64,000 nt of DNA from an uncultured bacterium (GCA_964387845.1 CAYLXA010000008.1:1-64000), one strand, 5' to 3'; positions 7,946-45,192 are shown, numbered from the stretch's first letter. Notes: generated by a model from the letters alone, not told the origin. Made by a program: numbers and translations.

Positions 7946-7965
7946 GACAGGCTCAGGGAGGCGTT

Positions 7966-8250
7966 ATGTGGAACGATAAACTTCGTCAGCATTATTGGTG
8001 GGCCGAAATCAACAGCCCGGCTGAGAAATTTCTTTATGAGCTCCGAAAAGCCGAGGACGAAGAAGATGCCGGCGTATATCTTTTGCAGCTTTATCTTAAT
8101 AATGAATCCGACCTTCATTTTTTTTCAAACAAAGACCGCCGCAGAATCTGCCAAATTTTAACATTCTTGATTCACGAAACCGAAAAGCACCGGACGATCT
8201 TGGCGCATTTGGCCGATGAGCTTGAAAAAAGGAGGGCGGGCCATGCTTAA
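7966..8250 (+). CDS. Hypothetical small protein (94 aa)
   Basis: Protein-like composition. Translationally coupled to the next small gene (ATGCTTAA overlap). Confidence 0.4.
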   Translation: MWNDKLRQHYWWAEINSPAEKFLYELRKAEDEEDAGVYLLQLYLNNESDLHFFSNKDRRRICQILTFLIHETEKHRTILAHLADELEKRRAGHA

Positions 8251-8488
8251 TAATCAGGTTAAAGACTTATGGCTGATTCGGTTCCGTAAAATCTATGATC
8301 TAGAGCGTGATTCATTCTATTTTTACCGCAAATTAATCAACAGCAACACAGAGCTTTTGCAGGATTCAGACGCGAGAAATATCCTGCGTAAGATTATGCG
8401 CGACGAACTCAATCATGCGCGCGCAGCATTAGAATTATTAAAAATTCTAGAAAACAGAAACGCTTCCAAAGAGGGCGGAGGCGCTTAG
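8243..8488 (+). CDS. Hypothetical small protein (81 aa)
   Basis: AGGAGG SD 6 nt upstream of the ATG at 8243. The track ORF starts at 8216 in the same frame. Confidence 0.4.
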   Translation: MLNNQVKDLWLIRFRKIYDLERDSFYFYRKLINSNTELLQDSDARNILRKIMRDELNHARAALELLKILENRNASKEGGGA

Positions 8489-8502
8489 AAACGAGGTGCG
8501 CC

Positions 8503-9216: not shown

Positions 9217-9231
9217 TTTGGCAGGGTTGAT

Positions 9232-10617: not shown

Positions 10618-11297
10618 AAAATTTAAATCAACTCCTAATTTTTTTTCTTTGTTTATCTGCTGCATTAACGATACCCGTGTATGCAGAAGATGATTTTCAA
10701 TATTGGTCTCGCTATTCCGTGAAAGCAATCGATACAAAATACATCGATTTTGTGAATTTCTGGGATTTGCGCTTTATGGAAGACTCATCGCGTCTCCGCC
10801 TGTGGTTTACAAGCCAAAAATTGCAAATCAATCCTGTTGAGTGGTTTGGCTTTGTGATTGCGCATACTTATCTCGAAAATTCTGCGGTCAATTCACAGAC
10901 CAAAACACGCGAATTTGTGTCTCAGCACAGGCTTGAATTGGAAGCCAATCCAAAATGGAAAGTTTCGCCTTGGCTGACGGTCAAAAACAGGAACCGGGTT
11001 GAATTCAGATGGATTGAAGACAAAGGTTCGGATAACACGCGAACGCGGCACATGGTTGAATTGGAGTTTCCGGTTAAAAAAAATCCGGTTGTGAAATCTA
11101 TTTACACAAACAGCGAAATTTTTGTCGATTTTAACCGCCATACAATTAATGAAAACCGCGCCATTCCGATCGGAATCAATTTTAATCTTTATAAAAAATC
11201 AACCTTCAGCATTTTTTACATGATTCAATCCCAAAAAGGCGCCCGGGATTGGTCATCGAATCAAATATTGGGAACCCAGGTGAGTTTAAATTTTTAA
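10614..11297 (+). CDS. Secreted / outer-membrane-type protein (DUF2490-like), function unknown
   Basis: ATG at 10614 overlaps the upstream stop (ATGA). The signal peptide MKNLNQLLIFFLCLSAALTIPVYA is followed by an aromatic-rich, beta-rich sequence. The track ORF 10263.. is an antisense-frame extension. Confidence 0.5.
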   Translation: MKNLNQLLIFFLCLSAALTIPVYAEDDFQYWSRYSVKAIDTKYIDFVNFWDLRFMEDSSRLRLWFTSQKLQINPVEWFGFVIAHTYLENSAVNSQTKTREFVSQHRLELEANPKWKVSPWLTVKNRNRVEFRWIEDKGSDNTRTRHMVELEFPVKKNPVVKSIYTNSEIFVDFNRHTINENRAIPIGINFNLYKKSTFSIFYMIQSQKGARDWSSNQILGTQVSLNF

Positions 11298-11308
11298 AGG
11301 GAATCATC

Positions 11309-12439
11309 ATGAGTTCAGGTTTTGATTTTTCAAAACGGCCGTTTTTGGTGATTTGGGAAACCACCAAGGCTTGCGGCCTCGCGTGCGTTCATTGCCGTGC
11401 GGAAGCCGATCCGAATCCAGATCCAGATGAACTGAATCATGAGGAAGCGCTCAAATTAATCCGTGATGTCAAAGAAATGGGAACGCCGATTTTGGTTTTT
11501 AGCGGCGGCGATCCGCTGCGCCGGAAAGACCTTCCTGATCTAATTCGCTACGCAAAATCTTTGAAAATCAGGACGGGCGCCATTCCGGCTGTGACGCCCG
11601 ATCTCACAAAAGAAAAAATTGTAGAGTTAGCTGAAAGCGGATTGTCGCAGATCGCTTTCAGTCTGGATGCGGCGGATCCGGTTGAGCATGATTCATTCCG
11701 CCGGACAACCGGTGTATTTGACAGGACCATTGAAAGCGTCAAGATTGCAAACGAGTTAGGTTTGAATGTTCAAATTAATTCTCTCGTGAATGTTCACAAC
11801 CAAGAGTCGCTTGATAAATTGATCAAGCTGATAGAAACGCTCAACATCGTGTTCTGGGAAGTATTTTTCCTGGTCCCGACCGGACGCGGAAAAGATTTGC
11901 CGCTTTTAACTGCTCAGAAATTTGAAGAAGCATTTCAGAAAATTTACGAACTAAACAAGCGCGTCCGCTTTGTAATTAAAGTAACGGAAGCACCGCACTA
12001 CCGCAGGTTTTATATCGAGCAGGAAATGAAAGCTGAAGAAGTTGACTTGCTTTCTATCAAAGACAGCCGCGTCGAACTTCCCGCGTTCTTAAGACGCAAA
12101 AGCGGGCCCAATGCCAGTATCGGCCACGCTCCGGACGGCGTTAATTCCGGAAAAGGGTTTATTTTTATTTCCAAAACCGGCGAAGTGATGCCGAGCGGAT
12201 TTTTGCCGATTCCGGCCGGAAATATCAGAAAAAAGCCGCTCTCCGATATTTACCAAAATTCGCCGCTTTTAATTGAATTGAGGGATGCCTCCAAGTTAAA
12301 GGGAAGGTGCGGGGCGTGTGAATATAAATACATTTGCGGCGGCTCGCGTTCGCGCGCTTATGCGCTTACGGGCGATTATTTAGCCGAAGATCCGAGCTGC
12401 GTTTACCAACCTGAAATCCTGAATTTAAAATATGCTTGA
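11309..12439 (+). CDS. Radical SAM enzyme with C-terminal SPASM domain (NirJ/AhbC/AhbD-like)
   Basis: Cx3Cx2C in PFLVIWETTKACGLACVHCRAEAD. A C-terminal Cys cluster CGACEYKYICGG...DPSC is typical of SPASM. ATG at 11309; the track ORF starts at TTG 11249. Confidence 0.8.
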   Translation: MSSGFDFSKRPFLVIWETTKACGLACVHCRAEADPNPDPDELNHEEALKLIRDVKEMGTPILVFSGGDPLRRKDLPDLIRYAKSLKIRTGAIPAVTPDLTKEKIVELAESGLSQIAFSLDAADPVEHDSFRRTTGVFDRTIESVKIANELGLNVQINSLVNVHNQESLDKLIKLIETLNIVFWEVFFLVPTGRGKDLPLLTAQKFEEAFQKIYELNKRVRFVIKVTEAPHYRRFYIEQEMKAEEVDLLSIKDSRVELPAFLRRKSGPNASIGHAPDGVNSGKGFIFISKTGEVMPSGFLPIPAGNIRKKPLSDIYQNSPLLIELRDASKLKGRCGACEYKYICGGSRSRAYALTGDYLAEDPSCVYQPEILNLKYA

Positions 12440-12497
12440 CACCCTCTTGAAATAATGGATACTATAGTCCATAATTAATATGGACGATAAAGTCCAT
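12436..12497. promoter_or_regulatory. Candidate promoter (TTGACA at 12436) with two 18-bp palindromic operators ATGGAT-ACTATA-GTCCAT and ATGGAC-GATAAA-GTCCAT upstream of rrf2-nosZ
   Basis: Perfect or near-perfect 6-6-6 inverted repeats at 12455-12472 and 12480-12497. The first overlaps the -10 region. The AGGAGG RBS and the rrf2 ATG follow. Confidence 0.45.
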
Positions 12498-12519
12498 AAT
12501 AGAGCATGGAGGAATTAAC

Positions 12520-12957
12520 ATGTTTCAATTGTATTCGAAAGGTTGCGAATATGCCATTAAAGCACTGTCTCAAATGGAAGATCCCAATCAAAATTACAGC
12601 GCGAAAAACATTTGCCGGCGCGCGCGAATTCCGGAGTCTTTCTCAAGAAAGGTATTCCAGTCTCTTGTTCACGGCAGATTCCTCGAAGCCGTTCCAGGCC
12701 CCGGCGGCGGTTATCGTTTGCGGCAGAACCTTAAGGAAGTTTCCATTCTGGATATTATCCGCGCGGTAGACGGCGCCAAGGCATTTGACCATTGCATCAT
12801 GGGATTTGCAAGATGCAGCGAAAAAACTCCCTGCCTGCTTCATGATAATTGGCTGAAGGCGAAAAAACATTTGGTTAACGAACTAAGGGAAAGAAAACTA
12901 AAAGATCTAATCAGCATGACGCAGAAAAAAAGGAGGAATTCCAATGGTAAATTATAA
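12520..12957 (+). CDS. Rrf2-family transcriptional regulator (NsrR/IscR-like, three-Cys cluster)
   Basis: N-terminal wHTH MFQLYSKGCEYAIKALSQM...ILDIIRAVDG. Cys ligand cluster HCIMGFARCSEKTPCLLH. It overlaps the nosZ start by 14 nt. Confidence 0.8.
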   Translation: MFQLYSKGCEYAIKALSQMEDPNQNYSAKNICRRARIPESFSRKVFQSLVHGRFLEAVPGPGGGYRLRQNLKEVSILDIIRAVDGAKAFDHCIMGFARCSEKTPCLLHDNWLKAKKHLVNELRERKLKDLISMTQKKRRNSNGKL

Positions 12958-14989
12958 AAGATTATTTTTTCTCAGCATCATCGGGGTTGTTACGGTTTTT
13001 GCATTAACGGGTTCATTTGGAATCGGCGGGTTCGAAACGAAATCTCTCAATGCGCAATCGGTAGAACTGCCCAAAGAAACAATGGATGCGATTCGTGAGC
13101 GTGGCTTAAGCCCGGATGATGTTACCGCTGCTGTTTCTACCTTTATGCCGACCGGTAAATATGATGATTATGTGATGTTTGCCTCAGGCGGTCATAGCGG
13201 ACAAGTATTTGCCATCGGCATGCCTTCTATGAGGCTTTTACGTACTATTGCTGCTTTTACACCTGAGCCGTGGCAAGGATACGGCATTGGTGTTAAAGAG
13301 AACGCACTAGTGACAGCCGCAAAAGGATCTACTGATCGTCAACTTACCTGGGCCGACACACATCATCCGGCTCTCAGCGAAACAAACGGAGATTATGACG
13401 GACAGTTTTTATTTATTGGTGATAAAGCAAACGGACGGCTCTGTGTGATTGATCTTCGGGATTTTGAAACCAAGCAGATCGTGCAAAATCCGGTTGTGAG
13501 CAGCAATCATGGCGCAGCTTTTGTTCCGTCCAACACCGAATATGTATTGGAAGGCTCTCAATTTGCAATGCCGCTCGGCGGAGGCTACGCGCCGATTGAA
13601 GATTATCAAAAATCATACCGCGGTTTAGCGACATTCTGGAAATTTAACCGTGAGAAGGGACGCCTTGAAATAGAAAATTCTTTCGGAGTGGAATTACCGC
13701 CTTATTGGCAGGACCTTGCTGATTTTGGCAAAGCCGAAAGTGACGGCTGGGCGTTCATCAATTCCTTTAATACCGAAATGTCAACCGGAGGTGTTGAAGA
13801 CGGAAATCCGCCTTTTGAGGCCGGCACCTCCCAGCGCGATATGGATTATCTCCATATTATTAATTGGAAACAGGCGGAGAAGACAGTTAAGGAAGGCCGC
13901 GCAAAAATGATCAATGGTTTGCGCGTGATTCCGCTAGATGTGGCGATATCGGACGGCATTCTTTTCTTCGCGGCCGAACCCAAAAGCCCGCATGGTGTGG
14001 ATGTGACGCCGAGCGGAAAGCATATTGTGGTTGCCGGAAAACTGGATCCTCACGTCACGATTTATGGAATTGATTTAATTAAAACAGCTATTGAGAAAAA
14101 GGATTTTGAAGGAAAAGATCCTTTTGGTGTTCCGATTTTAAGATTCGACGCTGTCAAAAAAGCGCAGGTCGAACTCGGCCTTGGTCCTTTACACACTCAA
14201 TTTGACAACAAAGGCTATGCGTATACGAGTCTTTTTCTCGATAGTGCAGTGGCCAGATGGACTTTGGGTGACGATAAGTTTAAGGCGCCCGAAAAACCGT
14301 GGACGTTGGTATCAAAAACGCCGGTCCACTACAATATCGGACACCTTGCAGCCGCTGAAGGTGACACGGTAAATCCCGACGGTAAATATTTAGTTGCGCT
14401 TAATAAGTGGTCCGTTGACCGATTTTTGAACACCGGACCTCTGCTGGCTCAAAACCTTCAATTAGTGGATATTAGCCGTCCCGGCGATTCGTTGAAAATT
14501 CTCTACGATATGCCCATTGGCAACGGCGAGCCGCACTATGCTCAAATTATTAAAGCGGATAAATTAAGAACATGGGAGGTGTATCCCGAAGTTGGATGGA
14601 ATGCCGAAGAGCAGAAGAAAAGCACGGTAGCGGCCATGGAAGGAAAGGTGGTCAGAAGTCCGGGCAAGGTTGAAATTTACATGCCCGCGATCCGGAGTCA
14701 TTTTGACCCGGAGCGTGTGCGTGTCACGAAAGGGGAGAAAGTTATTTTTTACATCACCAATCTTGAACGGACACTTGATGCAACGCACGGATTCAACATT
14801 GCCGGCTACAACATTGCGGCCAGCATTGAGCCGGGCGAGACAGTAACCATTGAATTCATCGCGGACAAGGAAGGCGTATTTCCATTTTATTGCCTTGAAT
14901 TTTGCTCCGCTCTTCATTTAGAAATGGCCGGTTATTTGCTGGTCGAGCCGGTGCCTGCGGCCGTTCAGCGTGAGAAGAAAGGTAAATAA
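12944..14989 (+). CDS. nosZ: Nitrous-oxide reductase NosZ (clade II / atypical, Sec-type signal peptide)
   Basis: 681 aa. The signal peptide has no twin-arginine. Seven-bladed propeller region. C-terminal CuA cupredoxin motif FYCLEFCSALHLEMAGY. AGGAGG SD. Confidence 0.93.
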   Translation: MVNYKRLFFLSIIGVVTVFALTGSFGIGGFETKSLNAQSVELPKETMDAIRERGLSPDDVTAAVSTFMPTGKYDDYVMFASGGHSGQVFAIGMPSMRLLRTIAAFTPEPWQGYGIGVKENALVTAAKGSTDRQLTWADTHHPALSETNGDYDGQFLFIGDKANGRLCVIDLRDFETKQIVQNPVVSSNHGAAFVPSNTEYVLEGSQFAMPLGGGYAPIEDYQKSYRGLATFWKFNREKGRLEIENSFGVELPPYWQDLADFGKAESDGWAFINSFNTEMSTGGVEDGNPPFEAGTSQRDMDYLHIINWKQAEKTVKEGRAKMINGLRVIPLDVAISDGILFFAAEPKSPHGVDVTPSGKHIVVAGKLDPHVTIYGIDLIKTAIEKKDFEGKDPFGVPILRFDAVKKAQVELGLGPLHTQFDNKGYAYTSLFLDSAVARWTLGDDKFKAPEKPWTLVSKTPVHYNIGHLAAAEGDTVNPDGKYLVALNKWSVDRFLNTGPLLAQNLQLVDISRPGDSLKILYDMPIGNGEPHYAQIIKADKLRTWEVYPEVGWNAEEQKKSTVAAMEGKVVRSPGKVEIYMPAIRSHFDPERVRVTKGEKVIFYITNLERTLDATHGFNIAGYNIAASIEPGETVTIEFIADKEGVFPFYCLEFCSALHLEMAGYLLVEPVPAAVQREKKGK

Positions 14990-20403: not shown

Positions 20404-21999
20404 GTGAAAAAATTATTATTAACCACCGTCTGTAAACCGCTTGGGCCGAAATACGGCGATTCGGAATCCGTAGGCTACGAGTTGCTTCACGGGCAGGTTA
20501 CGCGCGCTCAAGGAATTTTCTCGCTGCGCTCCGTAATTCATCACTTTTCACTCGAATACATCGCTCACAATCTTGAAACACCGACGGTTGTGCTGCAATA
20601 TCCATCCGAAAAAGAATTTATCCGAGAGCTCAAGAATAACAAGTACGACTTTGTTGGCATTTCATTTGTTTTGAGTACGCTGCATCATATGAAGCGGATG
20701 TCAGCACTTGTTCGAAAATTCTCGCCAAATTCAAAAATTATTCTGGGCGGCTACGGAACAGTTCTGTCAAACGAAGAACTTGAGCCCTACGGCGACTTTA
20801 TTTGCAGAGAAGAAGGAATCGGATTTTTGAGAAGAACTTTGGGCGAGCCGGAACTTCCGATGCCGTATGATCATCCGGTCATCACAAACGGCCTCAAGGT
20901 GTTTTCGCTTCCGGTGGGCAATAACGGCATGATTTTCGCGGGCCTTGGCTGTCCGAACGGCTGTGATTTTTGCTGTACGTCGTACTTTTTCAAACGCAAA
21001 CACGTCCGGTTGTTACCGGAAGGTGATGATATTTTTCATGTGATTCAGAAATACCGCAGGCACGATCCAAAAATCAAATTCACTGTGTTGGATGAAGATT
21101 TTTTGCTTAATCAAAAACGCGCGCGAAGGTTTCTAGATTTGGTACGTTCATCAGGCGAAGCGCCGCCTTCTATGTTTGTGTTCGGGAGTATCAAGGCGCT
21201 TTCACAATACGATATCCGAGAGTTACTTGAAATGGGTGTAACAGGTGTTTGGATCGGTTATGAAGGCCAACGTTCGGGGTATGCAAAACAACAGGGCCGG
21301 AATCCGGCGGAGCTTTTCCGGGAATTTCGGGAATATGGAATTAATATTTTGGCATCAATGATCATCGGTTTTGATTACCAAACACCGGAAATTATCGAGC
21401 AGGAACTCCGGGGATTAATGGATCTCCATCCCACATTTTCTCAAATCCTGATTTACGGCCCGACGCCCGGAACACCATTTTATGATCGAATTCAGAAGGA
21501 AAATAGGTTAGTGCCGCATCTTCAAACGGATCGCGACGCATACTATAAGAAATGTACCGGATTTTACGGGATGGTTCAGCACCCGACGTTAACGAGCGAA
21601 GAATTGCAAGCGCTGCAGCGGAAATGTTTCGACACCGACTTTAAAACGCTCGGACCATCGCTTGTACGCGCAGTGGAGAATTGGTTCTTGGGATATCAAA
21701 AGTTGATTCATGACAAAAGTGAAGTTCTAAGAAAACGCGCGGAGATGTATAAACAGGATATTTTGGAATCACTTCCTGTATTTTTAAGCGCAAAGATCCT
21801 GGGGCCATCGGAAGAAGCGCGCCTGTATGCGCATGATCTTTATAAGAAAATTACAATGAAGTTTGACGTTAATCTTTTACAGAATGCTATTAAATCCTGG
21901 TCAGCCCTTGCCATGGCGCACTGGACAGCGCTGTGCCTTAAAATGGATTGGTTTCAACATCCGCGCTTGACCCGGCTTGAATTTCGAATACAACATTAA
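20404..21999 (+). CDS. B12-binding-domain radical SAM protein (class-B-like)
   Basis: GTG start with an AGGAG SD. N-terminal cobalamin-binding-like region (FVGISFVLSTLHHMK...ILGGYGT). Cx3Cx2C in GLGCPNGCDFCCTSYF. Confidence 0.75.
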   Translation: MKKLLLTTVCKPLGPKYGDSESVGYELLHGQVTRAQGIFSLRSVIHHFSLEYIAHNLETPTVVLQYPSEKEFIRELKNNKYDFVGISFVLSTLHHMKRMSALVRKFSPNSKIILGGYGTVLSNEELEPYGDFICREEGIGFLRRTLGEPELPMPYDHPVITNGLKVFSLPVGNNGMIFAGLGCPNGCDFCCTSYFFKRKHVRLLPEGDDIFHVIQKYRRHDPKIKFTVLDEDFLLNQKRARRFLDLVRSSGEAPPSMFVFGSIKALSQYDIRELLEMGVTGVWIGYEGQRSGYAKQQGRNPAELFREFREYGINILASMIIGFDYQTPEIIEQELRGLMDLHPTFSQILIYGPTPGTPFYDRIQKENRLVPHLQTDRDAYYKKCTGFYGMVQHPTLTSEELQALQRKCFDTDFKTLGPSLVRAVENWFLGYQKLIHDKSEVLRKRAEMYKQDILESLPVFLSAKILGPSEEARLYAHDLYKKITMKFDVNLLQNAIKSWSALAMAHWTALCLKMDWFQHPRLTRLEFRIQH

Positions 22000-34931: not shown

Positions 34932-35002
34932 TTTTTGGCTTAGAAATTACAGGTAAAAAACAGTAACTAATTTAAATAGTTATAAAAAACTTATAAAAGT
35001 AC

Positions 35003-35031
35003 TTGACAAGTACCTGTCATAGTGTTAAATT
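35003..35031 (+). promoter_or_regulatory. Candidate sigma70 promoter (TTGACA-17-TAAATT with an upstream TG) followed by the 7-bp inverted repeat ATATATG-N9-CATATAT
   Basis: TTGACA at 35003-35008. 17-nt spacer. TAAATT at 35026-35031. The palindrome at 35040-35062 sits at about +2 to +25. Confidence 0.35.
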
Positions 35032-35518
35032 AACCGTAGATATATGAAATTAATCCATATATCCGGTATTTCGGCAGATAGATAAATTAAACAGTGACTT
35101 GCAGTGCCGAAATCAGTACAATGCAGGTCGCAATTCAAATGGCACTTGATGAGCCGCTCGAATTGCCGGCAGAATTAAGCGACTCTCTGGGCTGGATAGA
35201 GAGGGATTTAACATGAAAACCAATAGCTTAAAGTTCTGCTACTCCCGCTTAGACCCGACTCAAAAATCTTCTCTTTCCGCCGTCTTTTCCGATTTGTTCT
35301 CAGGCATCCAAAAATTCAACACCGTTTATAAACGCCAGGGCGAAGGTGTGATTTCAATCGAAGCGCTCAGGACACCGCGCCACCCGCGCGGTGCCAGACA
35401 AACGAGCGGCCACCCGCCGCTTAACCAACTGGCACCGAGCCGTATCGGTCGAATCCGCGCAGCTAGTCTGCAGCGTCCTCTCTGGCCTTCTGGAGCCTGT
35501 CTGCCGGCGGGTGACGGA

Positions 35519-35557
35519 AGCCGGGGAGTTCGTCCCGGCGTTTACCTTTTTTGATTT
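35519..35557 (+). terminator. Candidate intrinsic terminator (GCCGGG-gagttcgt-CCCGGC followed by TTTACCTTTTTTGATTT)
   Basis: GC stem plus T-tract at the end of the GC-rich transcribed region, immediately before the conserved leader. Confidence 0.4.
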
Positions 35558-35560
35558 AAC

Positions 35561-35653
35561 ATCCGGCAGCGAACAACGAACACTTGCGCAAATGCGCGAG
35601 TGCCATCTCGCGGGGCTTAAGGATAGCCCCGTCTCGATAGGAGGAGAATCAAA
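35561..35653 (+). promoter_or_regulatory. Conserved structured 5' leader, copy 1, upstream of the secreted-protein gene
   Basis: It shares ATCCGGCrG..ACGAACACT..GCGAGTGCCATCTC..hairpin..TCTCGATAGGAGGAG with the leader at 36219-36312. Both variable hairpins change by compensatory substitutions. Confidence 0.45.
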
Positions 35654-36172
35654 ATGAGAATGATAAACCTCATATTATTGGTACTAGGGATATTGACGAT
35701 TTCCGGACCAGCATTTGCTCAAAAGCCATTAGCTGATTATGGCAACGTACCTCAAAATGCGGTGAGTGGAGTTGCGGACGCAGAACCGCCTTTTATTTTG
35801 GAGCTCGACGCGGGAGGCAATCAGTTTCGGGGAGGCAGGCAAATCGTGGTTAACCTTGATTTCACGAATACGTCTTCCTCAGCTAGGGTAGACAACATTG
35901 AGTTTGCTTTCGGTATCACGCCTGCCAGCGAACCTGCGAATCCTGTTTTTCAGGATTACGGCATTGTTGATAGTGCCTTTTCACGCGGCGGAAAATATAC
36001 GATCTATACCGCAAAAGTCGTACTGACAACCGGCGATTACGATGTTTGGAGTATAGTCACTTCGACCGATCAATTTGGCAATTATTCGAACGGCTGGACA
36101 AAAAAACGAATTGTGGTAACTGGCGGTCCGATACCTGTTCAATCGACGGATGTTGCGGTAGGTAAGTCATAA
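35654..36172 (+). CDS. Small secreted protein (172 aa), function unknown
   Basis: GGAGGA SD. Signal peptide MRMINLILLVLGILTISGPAFAQ. First gene of the tandem secreted-protein array. Confidence 0.6.
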   Translation: MRMINLILLVLGILTISGPAFAQKPLADYGNVPQNAVSGVADAEPPFILELDAGGNQFRGGRQIVVNLDFTNTSSSARVDNIEFAFGITPASEPANPVFQDYGIVDSAFSRGGKYTIYTAKVVLTTGDYDVWSIVTSTDQFGNYSNGWTKKRIVVTGGPIPVQSTDVAVGKS

Positions 36173-36218
36173 AAATAAAGTTTAAACCAACAATCGGGAC
36201 TGTCCCGGATTCAAAACA

Positions 36219-36312
36219 ATCCGGCGGAGAAAGACGAACACTCACACATGATGTGCGAGTGCCATCTCTCGAGACTCAAAGAAGTCTCGTATCGATAGAG
36301 GAGGAATAAAAA
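36219..36312 (+). promoter_or_regulatory. Conserved structured 5' leader, copy 2
   Basis: See copy 1. Its hairpins CACATgATGTG and CGAGACtcaaagaaGTCTCG replace GCGCAaaTGCGC and CGGGGcttaaggataGCCCCG. Confidence 0.45.
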
Positions 36313-38190
36313 GTGAATACTATGAAAGTAAATACTGCCGTAGCGTGGTTAACTTTGTATCTAGGAAATACCAAACTTGTAAAAAATAGTCGTTGCCTAG
36401 TGATTGCACTTGCATTGATGGGTTTTCCACCGCTGTTATTTGCAGAAACTCCAACTTTTGATTGGCTCCGAACCGTTCAAAATTTACAGGATGCACATAC
36501 TTCAACTGCTCATAAAGTCGCAGTTGACTCTGAGGGGAATGTTATCGTGATCGGACACTTCCATGGAACGATGAATTTCAATCCCGGACAAAATCCGCCT
36601 GTTTTGTTAACTTCCACCAATAGCTTCTATAATATTTTTATAACCAAGTACCGGCAAAACGGAGACCATGTTTGGACAAAAGCGATAGGTGGAGATTATT
36701 CTACTCTCTCTTTCTCGTCTTTTTTGGGGGTTGATCCCTACAGTCATCTTGTCATCGATCAAGACAATAACATTATTATTGCAGGCTACTTTGTAGGTTC
36801 GTCCGATTTCGATCCTTCTGAAGACACTGACATTCATGAGTCTAAGGGAGGGCGTGATATTTTTATTACAAAACTTTCGAATGATGGCTCCTATCAATAT
36901 ACTGTTACGATGGGCGGCGAAAGAGACGACATCCCTCTTGACCTTGCTCTTGACGCAACAGGTAGTTTGGTGCTCACCGGATTTTTTACTTCACCAGCTG
37001 TCGATTTTGATCCTACTTATGAAGGAACCGATACTCATCTGCTTCAAAGCAGTGTGGGCGGTTTTATAACGAAACTTGGCAACAATGGATCGTATGAATG
37101 GACACATACCTTTGACGGGTTCCCGAACGGTTTGATGGCGGGGAAAAGTGTGGCGATTAATCGTTCGAGAGAAATTTATGCTATGGGCATATTCCAAGGT
37201 CAGGTTGATTTTGATCCTACTGAAAACGAAGATATCCGCACCTCTAACGGCGAGCGGGATATTTACCTGACCAAATTTTCACCCAATGGAGCTTATATTT
37301 CCACGTTGATTTTTGGTGGCTCTCTGCGAGAACGGCCGACGGCAGTTCGAATCGATTCCCAGGATAACCTATATTTAACAGGCTCTTTTAATGACCGTGT
37401 TGATTTTGATCCAACAGCGGGCGAAGATTTTCACGAAGCCGTGAATATATGCGCTCCCAACGTCTGCGGTGATATTTTCATAACGAAAGTCACGGCTGAT
37501 CATTCTTACCAATGGACTAAAACCATAGGAGCGCCGGTATTGAATCGTCCTTACTATATGCACTTGGATTCAGAGGGCAATGTTTATTTGACCGGTAGTT
37601 TTGGTGGGACAATTGATTTTGATCCAACCAACGGAACTGATTTTCACACCGCTATCGCCTCTACGGACATTTATGCAGTCAAAATTTATACAGACGGAAG
37701 TTATGGATGGGCAGTCAATATGGGGTATGATTCAGGCCCGTTTGGCAGCGCTCCCACGAATCATCATCTAGGATCCGGTTTGGCAACGGACAGAGATCAA
37801 AATGCAATCTTGGTTGGCTTTTTCCGTTATCAGGTTGATTTTGACCCTGGCCCAGGAATTGTTTGGGGTTTAACTCGCACTTATTTTGAATCTGCTTTTA
37901 TTCTTCAGTTAAGACCACGATATTCCTTGAATATTAATGTGGTCGGAAGAGGAGCAGTTGTCAGACAGCCCGATCTCTCAACTTATGGAAGAGGAGAAGC
38001 AGTGTTGTTAAGAGCGGTTCGGGAAAATGCAAGATGGGATTTTGAGCGTTGGAGTGGAGATTTAATGGGGGCTCGGAATCCGGTGATTATTGGCTTCAAT
38101 CGAGATACTCAAATCACCGCTTGGTTTACTGCTAGAGGACCTGAGCCGCTTGCGATAGATTTTGTACCAAATGATGATAAAAATCAGTGA
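36313..38190 (+). CDS. Secreted SBBP beta-propeller-repeat protein with a C-terminal InlB-B-repeat-like domain
   Basis: GTG start aligned with the gene-1 ATG. At least six about 45-aa repeats ending ...DFDPT..G.D.....G..DIFITKL..DGSY.WT...GG. C-terminal G.G.V....YG.G..V.L.A....FERWSGDL. Confidence 0.7.
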   Translation: MNTMKVNTAVAWLTLYLGNTKLVKNSRCLVIALALMGFPPLLFAETPTFDWLRTVQNLQDAHTSTAHKVAVDSEGNVIVIGHFHGTMNFNPGQNPPVLLTSTNSFYNIFITKYRQNGDHVWTKAIGGDYSTLSFSSFLGVDPYSHLVIDQDNNIIIAGYFVGSSDFDPSEDTDIHESKGGRDIFITKLSNDGSYQYTVTMGGERDDIPLDLALDATGSLVLTGFFTSPAVDFDPTYEGTDTHLLQSSVGGFITKLGNNGSYEWTHTFDGFPNGLMAGKSVAINRSREIYAMGIFQGQVDFDPTENEDIRTSNGERDIYLTKFSPNGAYISTLIFGGSLRERPTAVRIDSQDNLYLTGSFNDRVDFDPTAGEDFHEAVNICAPNVCGDIFITKVTADHSYQWTKTIGAPVLNRPYYMHLDSEGNVYLTGSFGGTIDFDPTNGTDFHTAIASTDIYAVKIYTDGSYGWAVNMGYDSGPFGSAPTNHHLGSGLATDRDQNAILVGFFRYQVDFDPGPGIVWGLTRTYFESAFILQLRPRYSLNINVVGRGAVVRQPDLSTYGRGEAVLLRAVRENARWDFERWSGDLMGARNPVIIGFNRDTQITAWFTARGPEPLAIDFVPNDDKNQ

Positions 38191-38193
38191 GTA

Positions 38194-38245
38194 ATTGGGG
38201 TCAGTTCTTGAAAATTGAACGGCATTCAAAATTCAAGAATCGACC
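38194..38245 (+). terminator. Long hairpin (about 21-bp stem) after the SBBP gene; terminator-like, no U-tract
   Basis: GGGGTCAGTTCTTGAAAATTGAA-cggcat-TCAAAATTCAAGAATCGACC. A paralogous hairpin is at 39788-39840. Confidence 0.4.
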
Positions 38246-38303
38246 TGAATAATCCGGCAAAATAAAAACAATTGCGGCAGCGGGAAAATAGGAGGAATAA
38301 AAA

Positions 38304-39770
38304 ATGAAAACGATAAAAACGATATTAATGTTAATGATAGCAACTTTTTCAATAGCAGGAGCGGCATTTGCAGACGGTTCAATTTCACCGTCGCCGGGTC
38401 TGACCGCGGCGTATGTGAATATTCCGCGTTCAAGCTGGCTGTTTGCATATTCTTCACCAAACGACGGAGCACAAGCACAACTTGTTGGAGACATTGTCCG
38501 CGTGACCCCGCCGGGCGGTAATTTTATTTATTCCATTAGCGGCGGATGGACGTTCGATAATCCGGATACTCCGGAAGTGGAAACGTACGACATGAGTTAC
38601 CTTACGTCACTCGTAGTCGGTCTTAAAGGTGGAATTTATACCACCTATGGGCCGGTTTTGGGGATGAGTTTGGAAGATAGCAGTGGAGCGTCTTCGGGCG
38701 TTTCATTGTTGTCTGTGAGCGACTCAACGGAGCAATATTGGTCGGTTCCAACAACCAATTTTTCCGCTGTTGACCTAACACGTGTCAAAAAAGTGACTTT
38801 TGGCGTTGGCTACACCTATAACGCTTCGGGAACAAATTTTGACATTCGCACTGTCCCGCCATCCTCAAATCCTTGTTTGATCAAAGTCCATGCAGGCGAG
38901 TCCATCCAAGCGGCTATTAATCAAGCCTCTGGCGATGGCTGCATGATTTGGGTTAGCGAAGGTACTTACGCAGAAAATATCACGATTGGGCAAGGCCGCA
39001 CTGACCTGAAAAATCTGACCATTTCCGGTGCCGGCATGGAAAAAACGGTGATTCAAGGCAGCGTAGTTGTTGATTTTACAGATCAAGATGGAAATCAAGT
39101 AGACGGTGGCGTGACCAGCATTCAGGATTTGAAAATCACGAACGCGAATTGGGGCGTGACGGTTGTGAATCAGAATGTAGTACTTGATCGCTTAAGATTG
39201 ACAGGGAATCAAGAGGGGGTTGTTGTCACGAGCGTTCGGGGCAATGTTGTTGTAGAAGGAAGCCCTAACGTGACAATTCAGCGCTCAGTAATCGATCATA
39301 ATACAGGCATCGGCGCTACGTTTTATCACGCCAACGAATTGAAGGCGTTTTTGGTCAATAACACCATTGTTGATAATAGTTTTGTGGGCGTGTTTGCACA
39401 ATTACCAGGACCGCAAACCCATCATCTAACTTTAATCAACAATATCATTTCGAGAAACTTCATCGGAATGGAAAATCATTCCGCGCCGAACGCCATAGTC
39501 AAGACTTTGTATGAATACAATGATAACTATGGAAATACCGCTGTTGATATACAAGGTGTTTTTAATTTTGTAGGAGATCAAAGCACCAATTTAAACGTTG
39601 ATCCGTTGTTTGTAAATCCAGCAGCCGGAAATTATCACTTACGGAGAGCATCGCCTATGATCAATGCGGGTGACCCGGTTTCACCTCGCGATCCGGATGG
39701 AAGCCGTTCGGATATCGGTGCGCTTCCGTTTTTTGGGAGGGTGATGAGTGTTGGATCAATCGAAGTTTAG
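38304..39770 (+). CDS. Secreted right-handed parallel beta-helix (PbH1/pectate-lyase-fold) protein
   Basis: Signal peptide MKTIKTILMLMIATFSIAGAAFA. Beta-helix rungs (NNTIVDNSFVGVFAQ, TLINNIISRNFIGMEN). C-terminal DPLFVNPAAGNYHLRRASPMINAGDP is typical of this family. RBS context GGAGGAATAAAAA. Confidence 0.7.
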   Translation: MKTIKTILMLMIATFSIAGAAFADGSISPSPGLTAAYVNIPRSSWLFAYSSPNDGAQAQLVGDIVRVTPPGGNFIYSISGGWTFDNPDTPEVETYDMSYLTSLVVGLKGGIYTTYGPVLGMSLEDSSGASSGVSLLSVSDSTEQYWSVPTTNFSAVDLTRVKKVTFGVGYTYNASGTNFDIRTVPPSSNPCLIKVHAGESIQAAINQASGDGCMIWVSEGTYAENITIGQGRTDLKNLTISGAGMEKTVIQGSVVVDFTDQDGNQVDGGVTSIQDLKITNANWGVTVVNQNVVLDRLRLTGNQEGVVVTSVRGNVVVEGSPNVTIQRSVIDHNTGIGATFYHANELKAFLVNNTIVDNSFVGVFAQLPGPQTHHLTLINNIISRNFIGMENHSAPNAIVKTLYEYNDNYGNTAVDIQGVFNFVGDQSTNLNVDPLFVNPAAGNYHLRRASPMINAGDPVSPRDPDGSRSDIGALPFFGRVMSVGSIEV

Positions 39771-39787
39771 AGCGCGTTAATGAATCA

Positions 39788-39840
39788 TTGGGGTCAGTTC
39801 TTGAATTTTGAAGACCGTTCAATTTTCAAGAACCGACCCC
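39788..39840 (+). terminator. Paralogous long hairpin after the beta-helix gene
   Basis: GGGGTCAGTTCTTGAATTTTGAA-gaccgt-TCAATTTTCAAGAACCGACCCC. The internal A/T block is swapped between arms relative to the copy at 38194. Confidence 0.4.
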
Positions 39841-39876
39841 AGTAACATTTAGAAGAAAGGTTAAAGGATATTGATT

Positions 39877-41457
39877 ATGCAAAGCAGTAAGCAGAAAAAA
39901 GATTTGGCTGTCAAAATAACAAGTTGGTTTATGGTTTTTTCAATTTTGCTTTTTGATCCGGCGAGCTCCTTGGCGATCGAGAGAATGTTCAATGTGTCGC
40001 ATGCGTCACTTTCAGTGGTGGAATGGGCTAGCGTCATCAGAGGATTCTCCGAAGGATCACGAGAACAAGTTTGGAGTGTGGCGGTTGATTCTAACGATGA
40101 TATCGTGGCAGCCGGACAATTTGATTCTCTCGTTGATTTTAATCCGGGGCCCGGATATGACGAACGAGATGGAAACAATACGCCTTTTCTGACCAAACTT
40201 CATTCTGATAGGTCATATGGATGGACCAAAACATTTGAAGGAACCGGCATCATCTCCAAGATTTTTATTGATCATGAGAATCACATTATCGGTGTCGGGA
40301 GTTTTTCCGGAACATTTGATTTTGATCCGGATGTCAGGGAATATCTAATGACTTCAAACGGAGGGGTTTCTAACGACAATTTTATCGTCAAATTTTTTCC
40401 GGATGGATCTTTGGAGTGGGTGCGCACATTCGGCAGTCCGCTGGGACTGGAAAGTGTCCGAGATCTTTTTGTAGATGATGAAGGAAATATTTATGTATCG
40501 GGCTGGTTTACTTCGTCGCCGGAAAACCCGATTGATTTTGATCCCAGTGACGGCGTTGATATTCATTTTTCAAACGGTTTGTATGACGGATATGTCATGA
40601 AATTAAAGCCGGACGGTTCTTACGACTGGACAAAAACCGTTGGCGGCACCGGTTTGGATTGGATCGAAGCCGTAACGGTTGATTATGATCAAAATGTTTA
40701 TTACACGGGAACTTTTAATGGAACGGTTGATTTTGACCCGTCGCCCAGCGGAGTTTATTTGCTCGCATCACATGAGCAAACCGATGTGTTTGTCAGCAAG
40801 TTGGATAAAGAAGGGAATTTTGAATTCACCTATTCCATTGGCGGTAATGAGATAGAAGAAGTGACCGATATCGCAACCGGAATCGATGGAGATTTATTTA
40901 TTTTGGGCGCCTTTTCATCTCTTCAAATAGATTTTAACCCGCATTTTGAAGGAAGTGATTACTTAGAGCCGAAAGGCAATTATGATCTTTTCCTTACGAA
41001 AATGAAGTTTGACGGATCCTACGCTTGGACAAAAGTGCTGAGCGGAGAATCGGATGATCGAGGCGCGAATCAGTTGACGGTAGACCCAGACGGAAATGTT
41101 ATTATCGCGGGCGGGTTTTGGAAATTAATAGATTTTGATCCTTCGGGCAACGGCGTTTATCGAGACGCGGGAACTACCCATGATATTTATGCGGTTCAAA
41201 TCAGCCCGGAAGGTGTTTACCAGCGGCTGATCGTATTTCCTACCAACGGAAGTTATCCGGGCCGGAGTATCACAAGCGCCGCGACTTGTGCTGCGCTGGA
41301 TTCCAGGGGGGCTCTTGTGTTGGGGGGTTATTTTATATTTCCGGTGGTGCTAGGCGGCATTCTTTATTTGCCGAGCGGGTATGAGGGGTTTGTTTTAAAA
41401 TTAGATCCTTCTTGGGCAGGGCTAAGTGCCGGCCATTCAACCAGTGATCGCGGTTAA
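39877..41457 (+). CDS. Secreted SBBP beta-propeller-repeat protein, second paralogue
   Basis: Repeats ...VDFNPGPGYDERDG, FDFDPDVREYLMTSNGG.NDNFIVKF.PDGSLEW, IDFDPSDGVDIHFSNGLYDGYVMKLKPDGSYDWTKTVGG, and others. ATG at 39877; the track starts at TTG 39871. Confidence 0.7.
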   Translation: MQSSKQKKDLAVKITSWFMVFSILLFDPASSLAIERMFNVSHASLSVVEWASVIRGFSEGSREQVWSVAVDSNDDIVAAGQFDSLVDFNPGPGYDERDGNNTPFLTKLHSDRSYGWTKTFEGTGIISKIFIDHENHIIGVGSFSGTFDFDPDVREYLMTSNGGVSNDNFIVKFFPDGSLEWVRTFGSPLGLESVRDLFVDDEGNIYVSGWFTSSPENPIDFDPSDGVDIHFSNGLYDGYVMKLKPDGSYDWTKTVGGTGLDWIEAVTVDYDQNVYYTGTFNGTVDFDPSPSGVYLLASHEQTDVFVSKLDKEGNFEFTYSIGGNEIEEVTDIATGIDGDLFILGAFSSLQIDFNPHFEGSDYLEPKGNYDLFLTKMKFDGSYAWTKVLSGESDDRGANQLTVDPDGNVIIAGGFWKLIDFDPSGNGVYRDAGTTHDIYAVQISPEGVYQRLIVFPTNGSYPGRSITSAATCAALDSRGALVLGGYFIFPVVLGGILYLPSGYEGFVLKLDPSWAGLSAGHSTSDRG

Positions 41458-41470
41458 GCGACTTAAATTC

Positions 41471-41512
41471 AGGGCAGTCCCAATTATCATTAAAACATTT
41501 GGGGCTGCCCCT
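41471..41512 (+). terminator. Hairpin GGGCAGtCCC-N19-GGGgCTGCCC after the secreted-protein array
   Basis: Seen in the sequence. Followed by a T-rich stretch. Confidence 0.35.
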
Positions 41513-41573
41513 GTTTCCCGCCTTCCTTCATTTTTTGTACCTTCCTGCCGTATTAATTGGTAAAATTACCGTC

Positions 41574-42641: not shown

Positions 42642-43037
42642 ATGAATTGTCCTGCTTGTAAAGACCCGATGATTGCCATCGAACTTCAAAAAATAGAAGT
42701 CGACCATTGCGTTGCCTGCGGCGGCGTTTGGCTAGACTCGGGGGAACTCGAGCTTTTGCTGGGCGATTCCGAGAGCAAGAATCAATTATTCGAAACTTTT
42801 CGCTCAAGCGGTTTGCGTGAGAATACTAAAAAAAGTTGTCCGATTTGCTCCAAGAAAATGGAAGAAGTGCATTACAAAAAGGATGAAGACATTCTGCTTG
42901 ATTTGTGCCGCTTGAATCATGGCATCTGGTTCGATAAAGGAGAGCTTGAAAAAGTAATCCGGCTGAATGACCTTAACGGAAATTCAGAAGTGCTTAAGCT
43001 TTTGCAGGAAATATTTGCACATAGCGGTAAGCGATAA
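42642..43037 (+). CDS. Tandem zinc-ribbon protein (zf-TFIIB / PF13453-like, two CxxC...CxxC modules)
   Basis: MNCPACKDPMIAIELQKIEVDHCVACGGVWLDSGELE... and a second module CPICSKKMEEV...LCRLNHGIWFDKGELE. Confidence 0.6.
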   Translation: MNCPACKDPMIAIELQKIEVDHCVACGGVWLDSGELELLLGDSESKNQLFETFRSSGLRENTKKSCPICSKKMEEVHYKKDEDILLDLCRLNHGIWFDKGELEKVIRLNDLNGNSEVLKLLQEIFAHSGKR

Positions 43038-43110
43038 GCGTTAGGCGTTAAGTTATTCAATCAACTTAACGCTTACCCCTTAACACTTAACGCTGACAAA
43101 AGGAGGACTC

Positions 43111-43665
43111 ATGGAAGCTTTGTGGATTGTGCTCGGAGTTATCGTTGTGGTGGCCTTGTCCGTGATCGGAATTTTCAACGCGCTGATCGGAATGAAAAAT
43201 CAGGTGAAGAATGCCTGGTCGCAAATCGATGTGCAGCTCAAGCGCCGTTACGATTTGATTCCGAATTTGGTTGAGACCGCAAAAGGGTTTATGCAGCATG
43301 AGCGCCAAACGCTTGAAAATGTGACCAATGCCCGCGCACAGGCGATGGGCGCCGAAGGGGTTGCGGCAAAATCAAAGGCCGAAGGCGTTTTGAGCGGCGC
43401 AATCAGCAAGTTTCTGCTGACAGTCGAGAATTATCCGCAGCTGAAGGCGAACCAGAATTTTCTTTCGCTTCAGGAAGAATTGACATCAACGGAGAATAAA
43501 ATCGCATTTGCCCGGCAAAATTACAACGACCAAGTGCTCTTCTATAATAATAAAATCCAAATGTTCCCCTCCAATTTGGTCGCGGGGTTTTTTAATTTTA
43601 AAGCTGAGCAATCTTTTGAAATTGGCGATCAAGCTCAAAAGAGCGCTCCAGCAGTTAAGTTCTAA
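43111..43665 (+). CDS. lemA: LemA family protein
   Basis: N-terminal TM. LKRRYDLIPNLVETAKGFMQHERQTLENVTNAR...ENYPQLKANQNF is diagnostic of LemA. AGGAGG SD. Confidence 0.85.
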   Translation: MEALWIVLGVIVVVALSVIGIFNALIGMKNQVKNAWSQIDVQLKRRYDLIPNLVETAKGFMQHERQTLENVTNARAQAMGAEGVAAKSKAEGVLSGAISKFLLTVENYPQLKANQNFLSLQEELTSTENKIAFARQNYNDQVLFYNNKIQMFPSNLVAGFFNFKAEQSFEIGDQAQKSAPAVKF

Positions 43666-43758
43666 GGGGTAAGTGGTAAGTGATAAGCGATGGGGTTAAT
43701 TTTCAAAAGTAGTTTTTATACTTACCACTTGGCCCTTACCACTTACAACTGAATAATC

Positions 43759-45192
43759 ATGTGGCAGCTTATCCAATCCAACCAGCGTAAATCGATTATT
43801 CTTGTCGTCGCGATGGCCGTGTGTTTGCTGCTCCTAGGCTATGTAATCGGCATGATGTTTGACCCTGCCCGCGGCGGCCTATATGGGCTTCTCGTCGCGT
43901 TTGTGGTCTGGCTCGTGATGAGTCTTGTGAGTTTCTATTCCGGTGATTCGATTTTACTTGCCGTCAGCGGTGCAAAAGAAGTGACGCCGGATATCCATCC
44001 GCAGCTTTTCAATGTGGTTGAGGAAATTAAAATTGCCGCCAATCTGCCGGTGATGCCGCGCATTTTTATCATGCCAGAGTCAGCGCCGAATGCGTTTGCA
44101 ACGGGCATTAAACCCGAGCGGAGCGCGATTGCTGTGACAACCGGCCTGCTGTCGAAACTTAACCGCGATGAGCTGCAGGGCGTTATTGCGCATGAAATTT
44201 CGCACATCATTAACCGCGACGTTTTGTATATGACGATGGCCGGCGTGATGCTCGGAAGCATTGCGCTCATTACGCAGGTGTTTACGCGCGGAATGTGGTA
44301 CACAGGCAGTGCTTCGAGGCGGTACCGTTCAGGCTCCATCCGAGGCGGCGGCCAAATTCAGGTCCTGATTTTTGTTTTGTCGATTATTTTCATCATTCTC
44401 GCGCCGATTTTAGCGCAGCTTTTGTATTTTTCGCTTTCCAGAAAACGGGAATATCTGGCGGATGCTTCAGGCGTCCGCCTGACGCGCTACCCGGAAGGGC
44501 TTGCCTCTGCGCTCGAGAAAATCGCCGCGTCAGATTCTGAGATTTATGCGGCCAATGAAGTAACGGCTGCCATGTTTATCGAAAATCCGTTCACAAAAGA
44601 AAATCGTTTTACGAGCCTGCTGGGAACTCATCCGCCGATCCGGGAAAGAATCAAAATTTTGCGCCATATGTCGCAAGGCGCCAGTTTGGCCAACTATGAA
44701 ACCGCATTTCGCTCCGTAAAAGGAAATTCCGCGGCCGCGATTCCGGCGATGAGCCTTCAGGATGAAAAAGAAATATCGCTTCGAGCGGCGCATGCGGACG
44801 CAGGAAAGCCATTTGAAGAGCCGGAATCCAAAGAGTCCGTGCGCGATGCAACCGATTTGCTGCGTGCGGTCAGCGGATTTGCATTTTTAGCGTGTACTTG
44901 CGGCATTAAATTCAAAGTTCCCGCCGATTTTAACCGGCCTGAAATTATTTGTCCGCGCTGCAGCCGGATTACGGAAGTGCCGTTTGCCATTTTGGCCGGC
45001 GCTGCGATGGTGCATCAGGGAAGCGACGCATCCGGACAAAAAACAGCCGAAGAGCCGCAGGTTTACAAGCGGAAGGGCGAGGGCTGGGAATCGTTTTCCT
45101 GCCGCTGCACCAAGCTGCTTCAGCTTTCTCCGCAATTTCTAGCGCCGCAAATGACCTGCAGTGCCTGCGGCCGCACCACCTTGATTCAATAA
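43759..45192 (+). CDS. M48-family zinc metallopeptidase (HtpX-like) with C-terminal double zinc-ribbon
   Basis: HEISHIINRD HExxH, followed by a second membrane segment and a Glu ligand region. C-terminal Cys pairs CTCG...CPRCS and CRCT...CSACG. Typical LemA-M48 gene pair. Confidence 0.7.
   Translation: MWQLIQSNQRKSIILVVAMAVCLLLLGYVIGMMFDPARGGLYGLLVAFVVWLVMSLVSFYSGDSILLAVSGAKEVTPDIHPQLFNVVEEIKIAANLPVMPRIFIMPESAPNAFATGIKPERSAIAVTTGLLSKLNRDELQGVIAHEISHIINRDVLYMTMAGVMLGSIALITQVFTRGMWYTGSASRRYRSGSIRGGGQIQVLIFVLSIIFIILAPILAQLLYFSLSRKREYLADASGVRLTRYPEGLASALEKIAASDSEIYAANEVTAAMFIENPFTKENRFTSLLGTHPPIRERIKILRHMSQGASLANYETAFRSVKGNSAAAIPAMSLQDEKEISLRAAHADAGKPFEEPESKESVRDATDLLRAVSGFAFLACTCGIKFKVPADFNRPEIICPRCSRITEVPFAILAGAAMVHQGSDASGQKTAEEPQVYKRKGEGWESFSCRCTKLLQLSPQFLAPQMTCSACGRTTLIQ

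Follow-up and report, generated by a model that had tools for sequence, protein, structure and literature searches.

A probable strain-variable island of secreted glycan-binding proteins with a conserved upstream reading frame and a predicted structured head in one Candidatus Omnitrophota lineage

This study concerns an array of four genes, g1 to g4, at positions 35654-41457 (+ strand) of a 64,000-nt stretch of DNA from an uncultured bacterium (GCA_964387845.1 CAYLXA010000008.1:1-64000; the whole stretch is hereafter called the window), together with the non-coding elements that precede and separate these genes (Table 1). The array is flanked by a small STI1-like gene on one side and by the gene of an AI-2E transporter on the other. 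Its head is constant, consisting of a promoter with a palindrome, an upstream open reading frame (ORF) lying in a conserved structured element, and the orphan secreted g1, and the genes after g1 are exchangeable. The modules shuffled among the latter are SBBP propellers, a beta-sandwich resembling a carbohydrate-binding module (CBM), a pectate-lyase-fold beta-helix, and CBM11/30-like repeats. It is considered probable, with real room for doubt, that, in one Omnitrophota lineage, this chromosomal site is fixed and houses an island, variable between strains, of secreted proteins that bind glycans and probably also cleave them. The nearest named homologs of the downstream AI-2E transporter, which has hundreds of homologs in all, belong to Candidatus Omnitrophica/Omnitrophota metagenome-assembled genomes, and by sequence the host genome is placed in Candidatus Omnitrophota. 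A contig scan with the AI-2E protein returned only Rhizobium loci (25% identical) and no close species-representative genome; the window proteins form singleton clusters, and an exact look-up of g3 and its identical copy P0001 gave no gene on record.

Table 1. Positions in the window of the genes and non-coding features described in the text (RBS, ribosome-binding site)
Feature	Position	Strand	Description
Promoter-like site	34998-35031 (including the palindrome)	+	TTGACA, 17-nt spacer and TG-TAAATT at 35003-35031; score 10/12; extended -10 TG
Upstream ORF	35213-35554	+	Own RBS GAGAGGGA; tail continues in the frame of ORF 35391-35657
Structured block	35330-35545	+	216 nt in the window, 155 nt in relatives; predicted 15-bp closing helix P1, two long arms, three-way junction
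Terminator-like hairpin	35520-35539	+	7 pairs, 6 of them GC; then GTTTACCTTTTTT (T-run)
Leader copy 1	35576-35656	+	Directly before g1; covariance model 99 bits
g1	35654-36172	+	172 aa; secreted orphan protein (predicted); constant first gene of the island
Leader copy 2	36234-36315	+	Directly before g2; covariance model 96.5 bits
g2	36313-38190	+	625 aa; GTG start; predicted secreted seven-bladed SBBP-type propeller with weak InlB-B-repeat-like C-terminal domain
Hairpin A	38194-38250	+	9 bp, AA/AA internal loop, 5 bp, outer pairs beyond; -22.9 kcal/mol, z -5.0
g3	38304-39770	+	488 aa; predicted secreted; beta-sandwich (residues ~23-185) and right-handed parallel beta-helix (~190-446)
Hairpin B	39787-39843	+	Paralog of A with the apical part inverted, UU/UU loop; -33.4 kcal/mol, z -7.8
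g4	39877-41457	+	526 aa; predicted secreted seven-bladed SBBP-type propeller, distant paralog of g2; weaker RBS
GC-rich hairpin after g4	41470-41513	+	T-rich sequence follows; -23.2 kcal/mol, z -5.0

Genes of the array and their products

The layout of the array is operon-like, with all genes on the same strand and intergenic gaps of 106-141 nt, and promoter-like sites inside it are not in excess (18 found versus 13.8 +/- 4.8 expected). The initial annotation had described four secreted proteins, and all four were recovered as + strand ORFs with signal-peptide-like N-termini (basic n-region, hydrophobic core, A-x-A-type site), as judged by a simple heuristic. Cleavage is predicted at AFA/Q (g1), LFA/E (g2), AFA/D (g3), and SLA/I (g4), the slash marking the cut, and the products would thus be exported by Sec. 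No lipobox ([LVI][ASTG][GAS]C) is present at the N-termini of g1-g4, and the C-terminal sorting or secretion domains looked for among Pfam and NCBIfam hits at E <= 1 (type IX secretion (T9SS) Por_Secre_tail, PEP-CTERM, LPXTG, etc.) were found in none of the four; additional paralogs of the array proteins are absent from the window. The RBS type that had been attributed to every gene, an identical AGGAGGAATAAAAA before the start codon, is shared by g2 and g3 only; that of g1 is GGAGGAGAATCAAA, and g4, for which the ATG at 39877 is the start of the form on record, has just AAAGGA, which means that the attribution holds for at most three of the four genes.

The placement of g2 and g4 among SBBP proteins stands, both by family and by motif, while the repeat length of about 45 aa given with it does not. 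The Pfam SBBP model (PF06739; cutoff 20.5 bits) scores g2 at 27.5 bits and g4 at 20.5 bits, i.e., exactly at the cutoff. The DFDP / FITKL / GSY-WT unit occurs in seven copies in g2 and in six plus one degenerate copy in g4, with a period of 61-77 aa (65-77 aa in g2) that equals one blade, and these counts would suffice to close a predicted propeller, for which 6-8 blades are needed. Alignment of g2 with g4 spans the entire propeller (30% identity, E 2e-53). With known SBBP proteins (PF06739; LipL53, NF047494; the CylK propeller, PDB 7FH8), g2 and g4 have in common the blade motif G-F-x-G-x-DFDP ... D-x-F-I-x-K-L ... G-x-x-W, seven blades, and export, and the similarity is significant in both hidden Markov model (HMM) and PDB sequence searches. 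The Leptospira lipoprotein model NF047494 matches g2 with E 1.8e-20 (73.1 bits) and g4 with E 2.5e-17 (62.7 bits), far under its 400-bit equivalog cutoff, so that the two are related to the LipL53 family and not members of it. Unlike the LipL53 proteins they are without a lipobox, thus not lipoproteins, and g2 carries an additional C-terminal domain. The latter weakly resembles the InlB B-repeat (PF18998, Flg_new_2), a domain suggested for searching in the initial annotation; the match lies in the last 90 residues, at ~538-608, and extends over profile positions 1-71 of 73, but its 17.3 bits (E 0.0046) fall short of the 23.6-bit cutoff. The same architecture recurs in one relative, L009, in which a 553-aa protein (20848-21056, - strand, the gene running off the locus) shows faint beta-propeller hits together with Flg_new_2; this protein lies ~10 kb downstream, and the L009 island itself is without g2.

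According to an AlphaFold2 model (9 sequences; mean predicted local distance difference test, pLDDT, of 74.5), g3 is, at the fold level, a right-handed parallel beta-helix of the pectin-lyase fold, preceded by a beta-sandwich. Foldseek matches the model to a GH87 glucanase (E 8e-7), and also to pectate lyase, PL6 enzymes, and phage tailspike depolymerases. Its structural relatives are thus the pectate-lyase-fold carbohydrate-active enzymes that contain a beta-sandwich, namely, GH87 alpha-1,3-glucanase (6K0V), PL6 alginate lyase (7DMK), pectate lyase (7XKS), and the capsule depolymerase tailspikes of phages; in contrast to this structural likeness, sequence identity is only 8-23%, and carbohydrate activity is a prediction. 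The beta-helix proposed earlier for g3 is therefore upheld by the fold-level model and by the C-terminal motif DPLFV...AGDP, but not by HMMs, those for PbH1 repeats included: the E value with TIGR03804 is 0.35, precomputed PF13229 annotations exist for the homologs P0004, P0005, and P0008 and are missing from the hits of g3 itself, and the matches to DUF5123 (PF17161, residues 352-458, in which the motif falls) and to Pectinesterase (CE8, PF01095, covering just profile positions 16-68) are below cutoff. Residues 1-189 have no Pfam hit. In Foldseek, the N-terminal domain matches CBM30 (1WZX; E 1e-3; template modelling score 0.47, normalised on the target), which makes it weakly CBM30/CIA30-like and sugar binding putative. 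Unlike that of the enzymes named above, this N-terminal module is lineage-specific; elsewhere it forms a gene of its own (L003) or is joined to CBM repeats (L004).

The first gene, g1, belongs to a family confined to about six loci, all of them metagenomic. When 1.84 billion representative proteins were searched exhaustively with HMMER, g1 gave three hits, namely, g1 itself, one 41%-identical relative, and P0147, a low-complexity repeat protein that was dismissed as spurious, and a metagenome scan with the family profile returned only the contig of L009. Searches of Pfam, NCBIfam, and PDB were all negative for g1; its profile, compared with PDB and Pfam, gave nanobody, immunoglobulin V, and BsuPI matches, all non-significant, and an AlphaFold2 model built from a 3-sequence alignment (pLDDT 37.5) was too low in confidence for a fold.

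Variation of the island among relatives

Six metagenomic relatives, each covering part of the locus, were compared with the window. In L009/L010/L011 (AI-2E 81% identical), the flanks are the same on both sides (FAD protein, DUF1318, 289 aa, 79 aa ... AI-2E, Zn-ribbon, LemA, M48, YceI), and the island consists of a g1 homolog (65%) and a 590-aa protein only. In L004/L005 (AI-2E 86%), a g1 homolog (g1', 41%), a 737-aa protein, and AI-2E follow one another in order. AI-2E is not covered in L008, where the 79-aa gene, the head, and g1 (68%) are followed directly by g3 (73%), and L012, which comes from the sample shared with L008, has a 535-aa multi-CBM protein ahead of AI-2E (79%). Two further relatives, likewise not covering AI-2E, show g1 followed by g3 (81%) in L007 and g1 (62%) followed by g2 (91%) in L006. 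In L013/L014, whose AI-2E is 62% identical, synteny is lost. The 590-, 737-, and 535-aa cargo proteins are mutually homologous (42-60%) and match CBM11, CBM30, CIA30, and SGBP_B_XBD; the 737-aa protein of L004 is the g3 N-terminal domain fused to the CBM region of the 590-aa protein, its first 184 residues being 68% identical to that domain.

The accessory nature proposed for the locus is supported by these relatives because the flanks are the same and the genes after g1 differ (CBM proteins, g3 alone, or g2), with each of three same-flank relatives differing between g1 and AI-2E. The proposal does not extend to the head: wherever a relative covers the promoter, the upstream ORF/RNA block, and g1, these are retained. 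The earlier expectation of secreted or surface products that bind or act on carbohydrates was likewise strengthened, by the fold matches of g3 and by the CBM11, CBM30, and CIA30 hits of the cargo found at the same site. In these hits and in their strain-variable content, the loci resemble CBM-rich surface glycan-binding loci (CBM11, CBM30, and SGBP-B-type modules); unlike polysaccharide-utilisation loci, the island has no adjoining SusC/SusD-type transporter, glycoside hydrolase, sensor, or regulator genes.

Two further observations concern gene content. In an unrelated context, L003 contains an analogous run of five secreted genes (7902-13739) that encode a CBM30-like protein, the g3 N-terminal domain alone (201 aa), a 337-aa beta-helix, a 532-aa protein with g3-N-like repeats, and a second beta-helix; the g3 modules are separate genes there, and modules are therefore reused as separate genes. 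Next to the island, AI-2E and YceI are separated in the window by three genes, for a Zn-ribbon protein, LemA, and an M48 peptidase (42642-45192); this trio is also present in L009/L010 and absent from L004 and L012, and constitutes a second presence/absence difference.

Head, leaders and hairpins

The strong promoter-like site at the start of the head carries over its -35 box a perfect 7+1+7 palindrome, AGTACTTGACAAGTAC, a candidate operator for some regulator. The palindrome occurs nowhere else in the window, where 0.09 would be expected, and L004, L005, and L008-L011 carry it unchanged. About 175 nt downstream of the promoter, at an ATG at 35213, the upstream ORF begins. It spans about 100-120 codons (about 103-120 aa) in relatives, and its frame contains no stops in all four loci, as against 1-5 in the other frames. 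Its RBS sits in a conserved CUCUC/GAGAG stem, its N-terminal 40 codons are variable, KRQGEGVTSIEALRTPGRIDQSTQLCCSVLSGFLLPVCRRAQKVGEFVPAFTF forms its C-terminal part, and searches of Pfam and NCBIfam give no family for it. In the window, 60 nt are inserted into the ORF in frame, and a +1 nt shift after this insertion breaks it; the shifted frame traverses leader copy 1 and stops at an ATGA that overlaps the g1 start codon.

The 3' half of this ORF, encoding the C-terminal part, coincides with the structured block, which in relatives is found at 551-705 (L008), 384-538 (L004), and 7261-7415 (L009). Among these three, the block DNA is 95-100% identical, compared with 74-78% for the AI-2E coding sequence and 51-68% for g1, so that its conservation exceeds that of every neighbouring gene; the window copy is 86-88% identical to theirs. 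The 155-nt form has a predicted fold of -83.3 kcal/mol (z -6.4), and the window copy folds far better on the + strand (z -6.1) than on the - strand (z -2.6). In the alignment, 98.4% of cells are paired and 12 of the 16 variable pairs stay paired, one by a double change, with many G-U pairs; this covariation comes from four sequences and is weak, and the shuffle controls are uninformative. The 60-nt insertion (35373-35432) is flanked by a CACCG direct repeat and falls exactly within the apical loop of P2, to which it contributes two small hairpins. An unrelated, hairpin-rich insertion of 111 nt occupies the leader region of L009 (6958-7068). Further copies of the block or of either insertion were absent from the sequences compared by blastn, a viral-contig scan for the 155-nt block gave nothing, and a search of Rfam 15 with the window (block, leader, and hairpins) gave no hits at the gathering score and nothing relevant at E <= 10 or E <= 5. 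The terminator-like hairpin at the end of the block overlaps the 3' strands of P3 and P1, and the two predicted folds are therefore mutually exclusive.

Neither a purely non-coding nor a purely coding nature fits the region 35000-35650. The former was rejected, as a single frame, and no other, stays open throughout the four loci, and so was the latter, as the neighbouring genes are less conserved in their DNA and the fold depends on the strand; a further ground lies in the differences between L004 and L008, about five of which are non-synonymous and two synonymous by a manual count.

Between the block and g1, and again before g2, lies an 81-nt leader with two hairpins. Over 167 kb, its covariance model finds three copies only, the third before g3 in L007 (139-233). 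The two copies of the window are about 81% identical over a 32-nt core, with compensatory changes in both stems, e.g., CGGGGCU/AGCCCCG versus CGAGACU/AGUCUCG. Between the stems, an invariant GCCAUCUC is predicted to pair with the GGAGGAG RBS, a pairing (CCAUCUC-RBS) that is present in the minimum-energy fold of copy 2, and the leader would thus mask the RBS. It is absent before g1 in L004, L006, L008, and L009, and before g2 in L006. The L007 copy matches the Rfam ylbH leader with 24 bits (gathering score 50; E 0.18), which was rejected as chance, as neither window copy matches. The leader looks like an insertion of ~60 nt between the RBS and a junction motif, ATCCGGC(A/G), with which almost all intergenic spacers of the island begin, both in the window (35561-35569, 36219-36227, and 38254-38262) and in relatives (L004, 1190-1200; L006, 611-620).

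The long hairpins that follow g2 and g3, A and B, had been annotated as paralogous terminators in which an internal A/T block was swapped between the arms. Their paralogy was borne out: they share the same architecture (9 bp, a 2x2 internal loop, 5 bp), and a search of the 64 kb with the hairpin arms gives four matches versus 0.01 expected, with A and B as the sole copies; the motif is absent from the relatives' fetched loci. By blastn, A and B align best in inverted orientation (93% over 44 nt), the direct orientation aligning the outer 19 nt only, and the apical 44-nt segment is thus inverted between the outer inverted repeats. This inversion explains the "swapped" A/T block. Terminators of the Rho-independent type are not supported for A and B, as the stems are followed by TGAATAATCC and AGTAACATTT, neither of which contains a U-tract (T-run), and the terminator scan called neither hairpin. 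REP/BIME-type palindromes (repetitive extragenic palindromes and bacterial interspersed mosaic elements) lie between cistrons, e.g., in the malE-malF spacer of E. coli. A and B are like these in that they are long, imperfect, free of a U-tract, and placed between genes of a predicted common transcription unit, that they occur in either orientation, and that they resemble each other more closely than the preceding genes do; they are unlike them in that only two copies exist in the 64 kb and none in the relatives' loci, and their RNA-stability role is an inference. The two hairpins would then serve as REP-like intercistronic stabilisers or decouplers. The transcription unit probably ends at the GC-rich hairpin after g4, before the conserved AI-2E gene is reached. 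A further palindrome, GGGAC(A/T)GTCCC, occurs twice near the start of the window (at 2171 and 2190, 19 nt apart, spanning 2171-2200) and once after g1 (36196-36206), and in L004 (3455-3490) forms a long perfect hairpin that follows the cargo gene; it may be a 3' hairpin motif typical of the lineage.

Interpretation of the locus

In the interpretation favored here, g1-g4 would be co-transcribed from the upstream promoter, and the exported products would bind or cut polysaccharide on environmental surfaces or on prey or host cells, the diverse cargo corresponding to different targets and the short repeated non-coding pieces acting at the RNA level. Several points weigh against it. Co-transcription, RNA roles, and ligand are all derived from sequence and predicted folds, and the export signals from a simple heuristic. 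The variation was seen among six metagenomic relatives, several of which are short contigs, and treating L008 and L012 as one genome is an assumption made from their shared sample. SBBP propellers have no single known function, and for g2 and g4 the propeller fold itself is predicted; g1 is without a detectable family or fold; and the Pfam hits of g3 remain under their cutoffs (DUF5123, 29.6 versus 35.1 bits; Pectinesterase, 23.6 versus 27 bits).

Two other functions can be set against a carbohydrate-directed role. The products could be adhesins for proteins or cells of prey or host, with the helix and the propellers as purely structural binding scaffolds that are not carbohydrate-active. This is rather unlikely, given that modules of the CBM11/CBM30/CIA30 type dominate the cargo at the same site in relatives, that enzymes acting on polysaccharides (lyases, hydrolases, and epimerases) head the structural matches of g3, and that most tailspike hits are themselves glycan depolymerases. 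Alternatively, the propellers could be SBBP-propeller enzymes of the CylK/BrtB type that perform alkyl transfer rather than binding. CylK propeller chains are indeed the only PDB sequence matches of g2 (E 3.8e-6 to 8.6e-6), yet the match is limited to generic propeller blades at about 28-29 bits, the N-terminal domain of CylK is absent from g2 and g4, biosynthetic genes are absent nearby, and the proteins bear export signals; the enzyme reading is scarcely credible and was rejected on these grounds.

For the origin of the array, growth by tandem duplication of whole cassettes (leader, gene, and hairpin) with subsequent divergence, as proposed in the initial annotation, was not confirmed and is considered improbable. 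The paralogy of g2 and g4 across their full propellers speaks for it, as does the likeness of the hairpins (79-86%) and of the leader cores. However, 30% identity between g2 and g4 contrasts with non-coding repeats that are about 80-90% alike, and these repeats flank unrelated genes, the leader preceding g1 and g2 and the hairpin following g2 and g3. The leader, moreover, stands before g3 in L007 and is absent from L006, L008, and L009. Since the genes beside the leaders and hairpins are not related to one another, and since these elements are present or absent irrespective of those genes, they do not indicate duplicated cassettes. The two domains of g3 are elsewhere separate genes or parts of other fusions, which points to module shuffling or replacement. 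A fixed site with variable cargo beside a highly conserved non-coding block also recalls an integron-like cassette array, in which the long imperfect hairpins, palindromes with unpaired bases after promoterless ORFs, would be attC-like sites and the ultra-conserved block an attI-like site. This was judged very improbable and rejected: the genes found over about 8-10 kb on each side, in the window and in L009, include neither an integrase nor a recombinase, and the arms GTTCTTG...CAAGAAC have the reverse of the attC order RYYYAAC...GTTRRRY. In addition, a hairpin is found on two of the four genes only and on none in the relatives' loci, and the block, rich in G-U pairs and with its far better + strand fold, resembles an RNA rather than a DNA site. 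The strain-variable island of glycan-binding proteins is thus retained as the preferred interpretation.

Within this island, the head may be a previously undescribed cis-regulatory device, a proposal that is put forward tentatively and is held to be less likely than not to be correct. An upstream ORF of ~100 codons would double as a three-way-junction RNA, whose helix P1 competes with the terminator-like hairpin, and its translation, or a bound ligand or protein, would decide transcription read-through into the swappable secreted-protein genes; leaders able to mask the RBS would add a second, gene-by-gene layer of control. If true, the dual constraint of coding and RNA structure would explain why the block is so much more conserved than its neighbours (95-100% versus 74-78%). 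In classical leader-peptide attenuators, the upstream ORF has 14-30 codons. The head resembles these and RBS-masking leaders in having an upstream ORF with its own RBS, here masked by the CUCUC/GAGAG stem, a terminator-like hairpin set against an alternative fold, and downstream leaders with an RBS-pairing CCAUCUC. It differs in the length of the upstream ORF (about 100-120 codons), which is without a run of regulatory codons, and in the competing structure, which is a 155-nt three-way junction with a 15-bp closing helix and without an Rfam family.

Omnitrophota have been proposed to be predators or parasites, whose large surface proteins contain CBM-like modules and beta-helices that would serve to adhere to cells and to digest their walls (bioRxiv 10.1101/2023.11.21.568195). 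The module set described here fits this literature, which is no test of the interpretation. The proteins of g1-g4 are of ordinary, familiar fold classes, and the upstream ORF/RNA head is the one feature of the locus that might be new. Omnitrophota are uncultured, very small bacteria; to our knowledge, the mechanism by which they recognize and attack their targets is unknown, and we know of almost no regulatory RNAs described for the phylum. In compact form, the locus illustrates how interchangeable modules of secreted, probably glycan-binding or glycan-cleaving proteins can stand behind a fixed expression platform made up of the promoter, the upstream ORF/RNA element, and g1, and as such it supplies candidate target-recognition proteins. 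If the upstream element is regulatory, it would provide a handle on the timing of surface-protein deployment, as well as a new class of RNA motif for the phylum.

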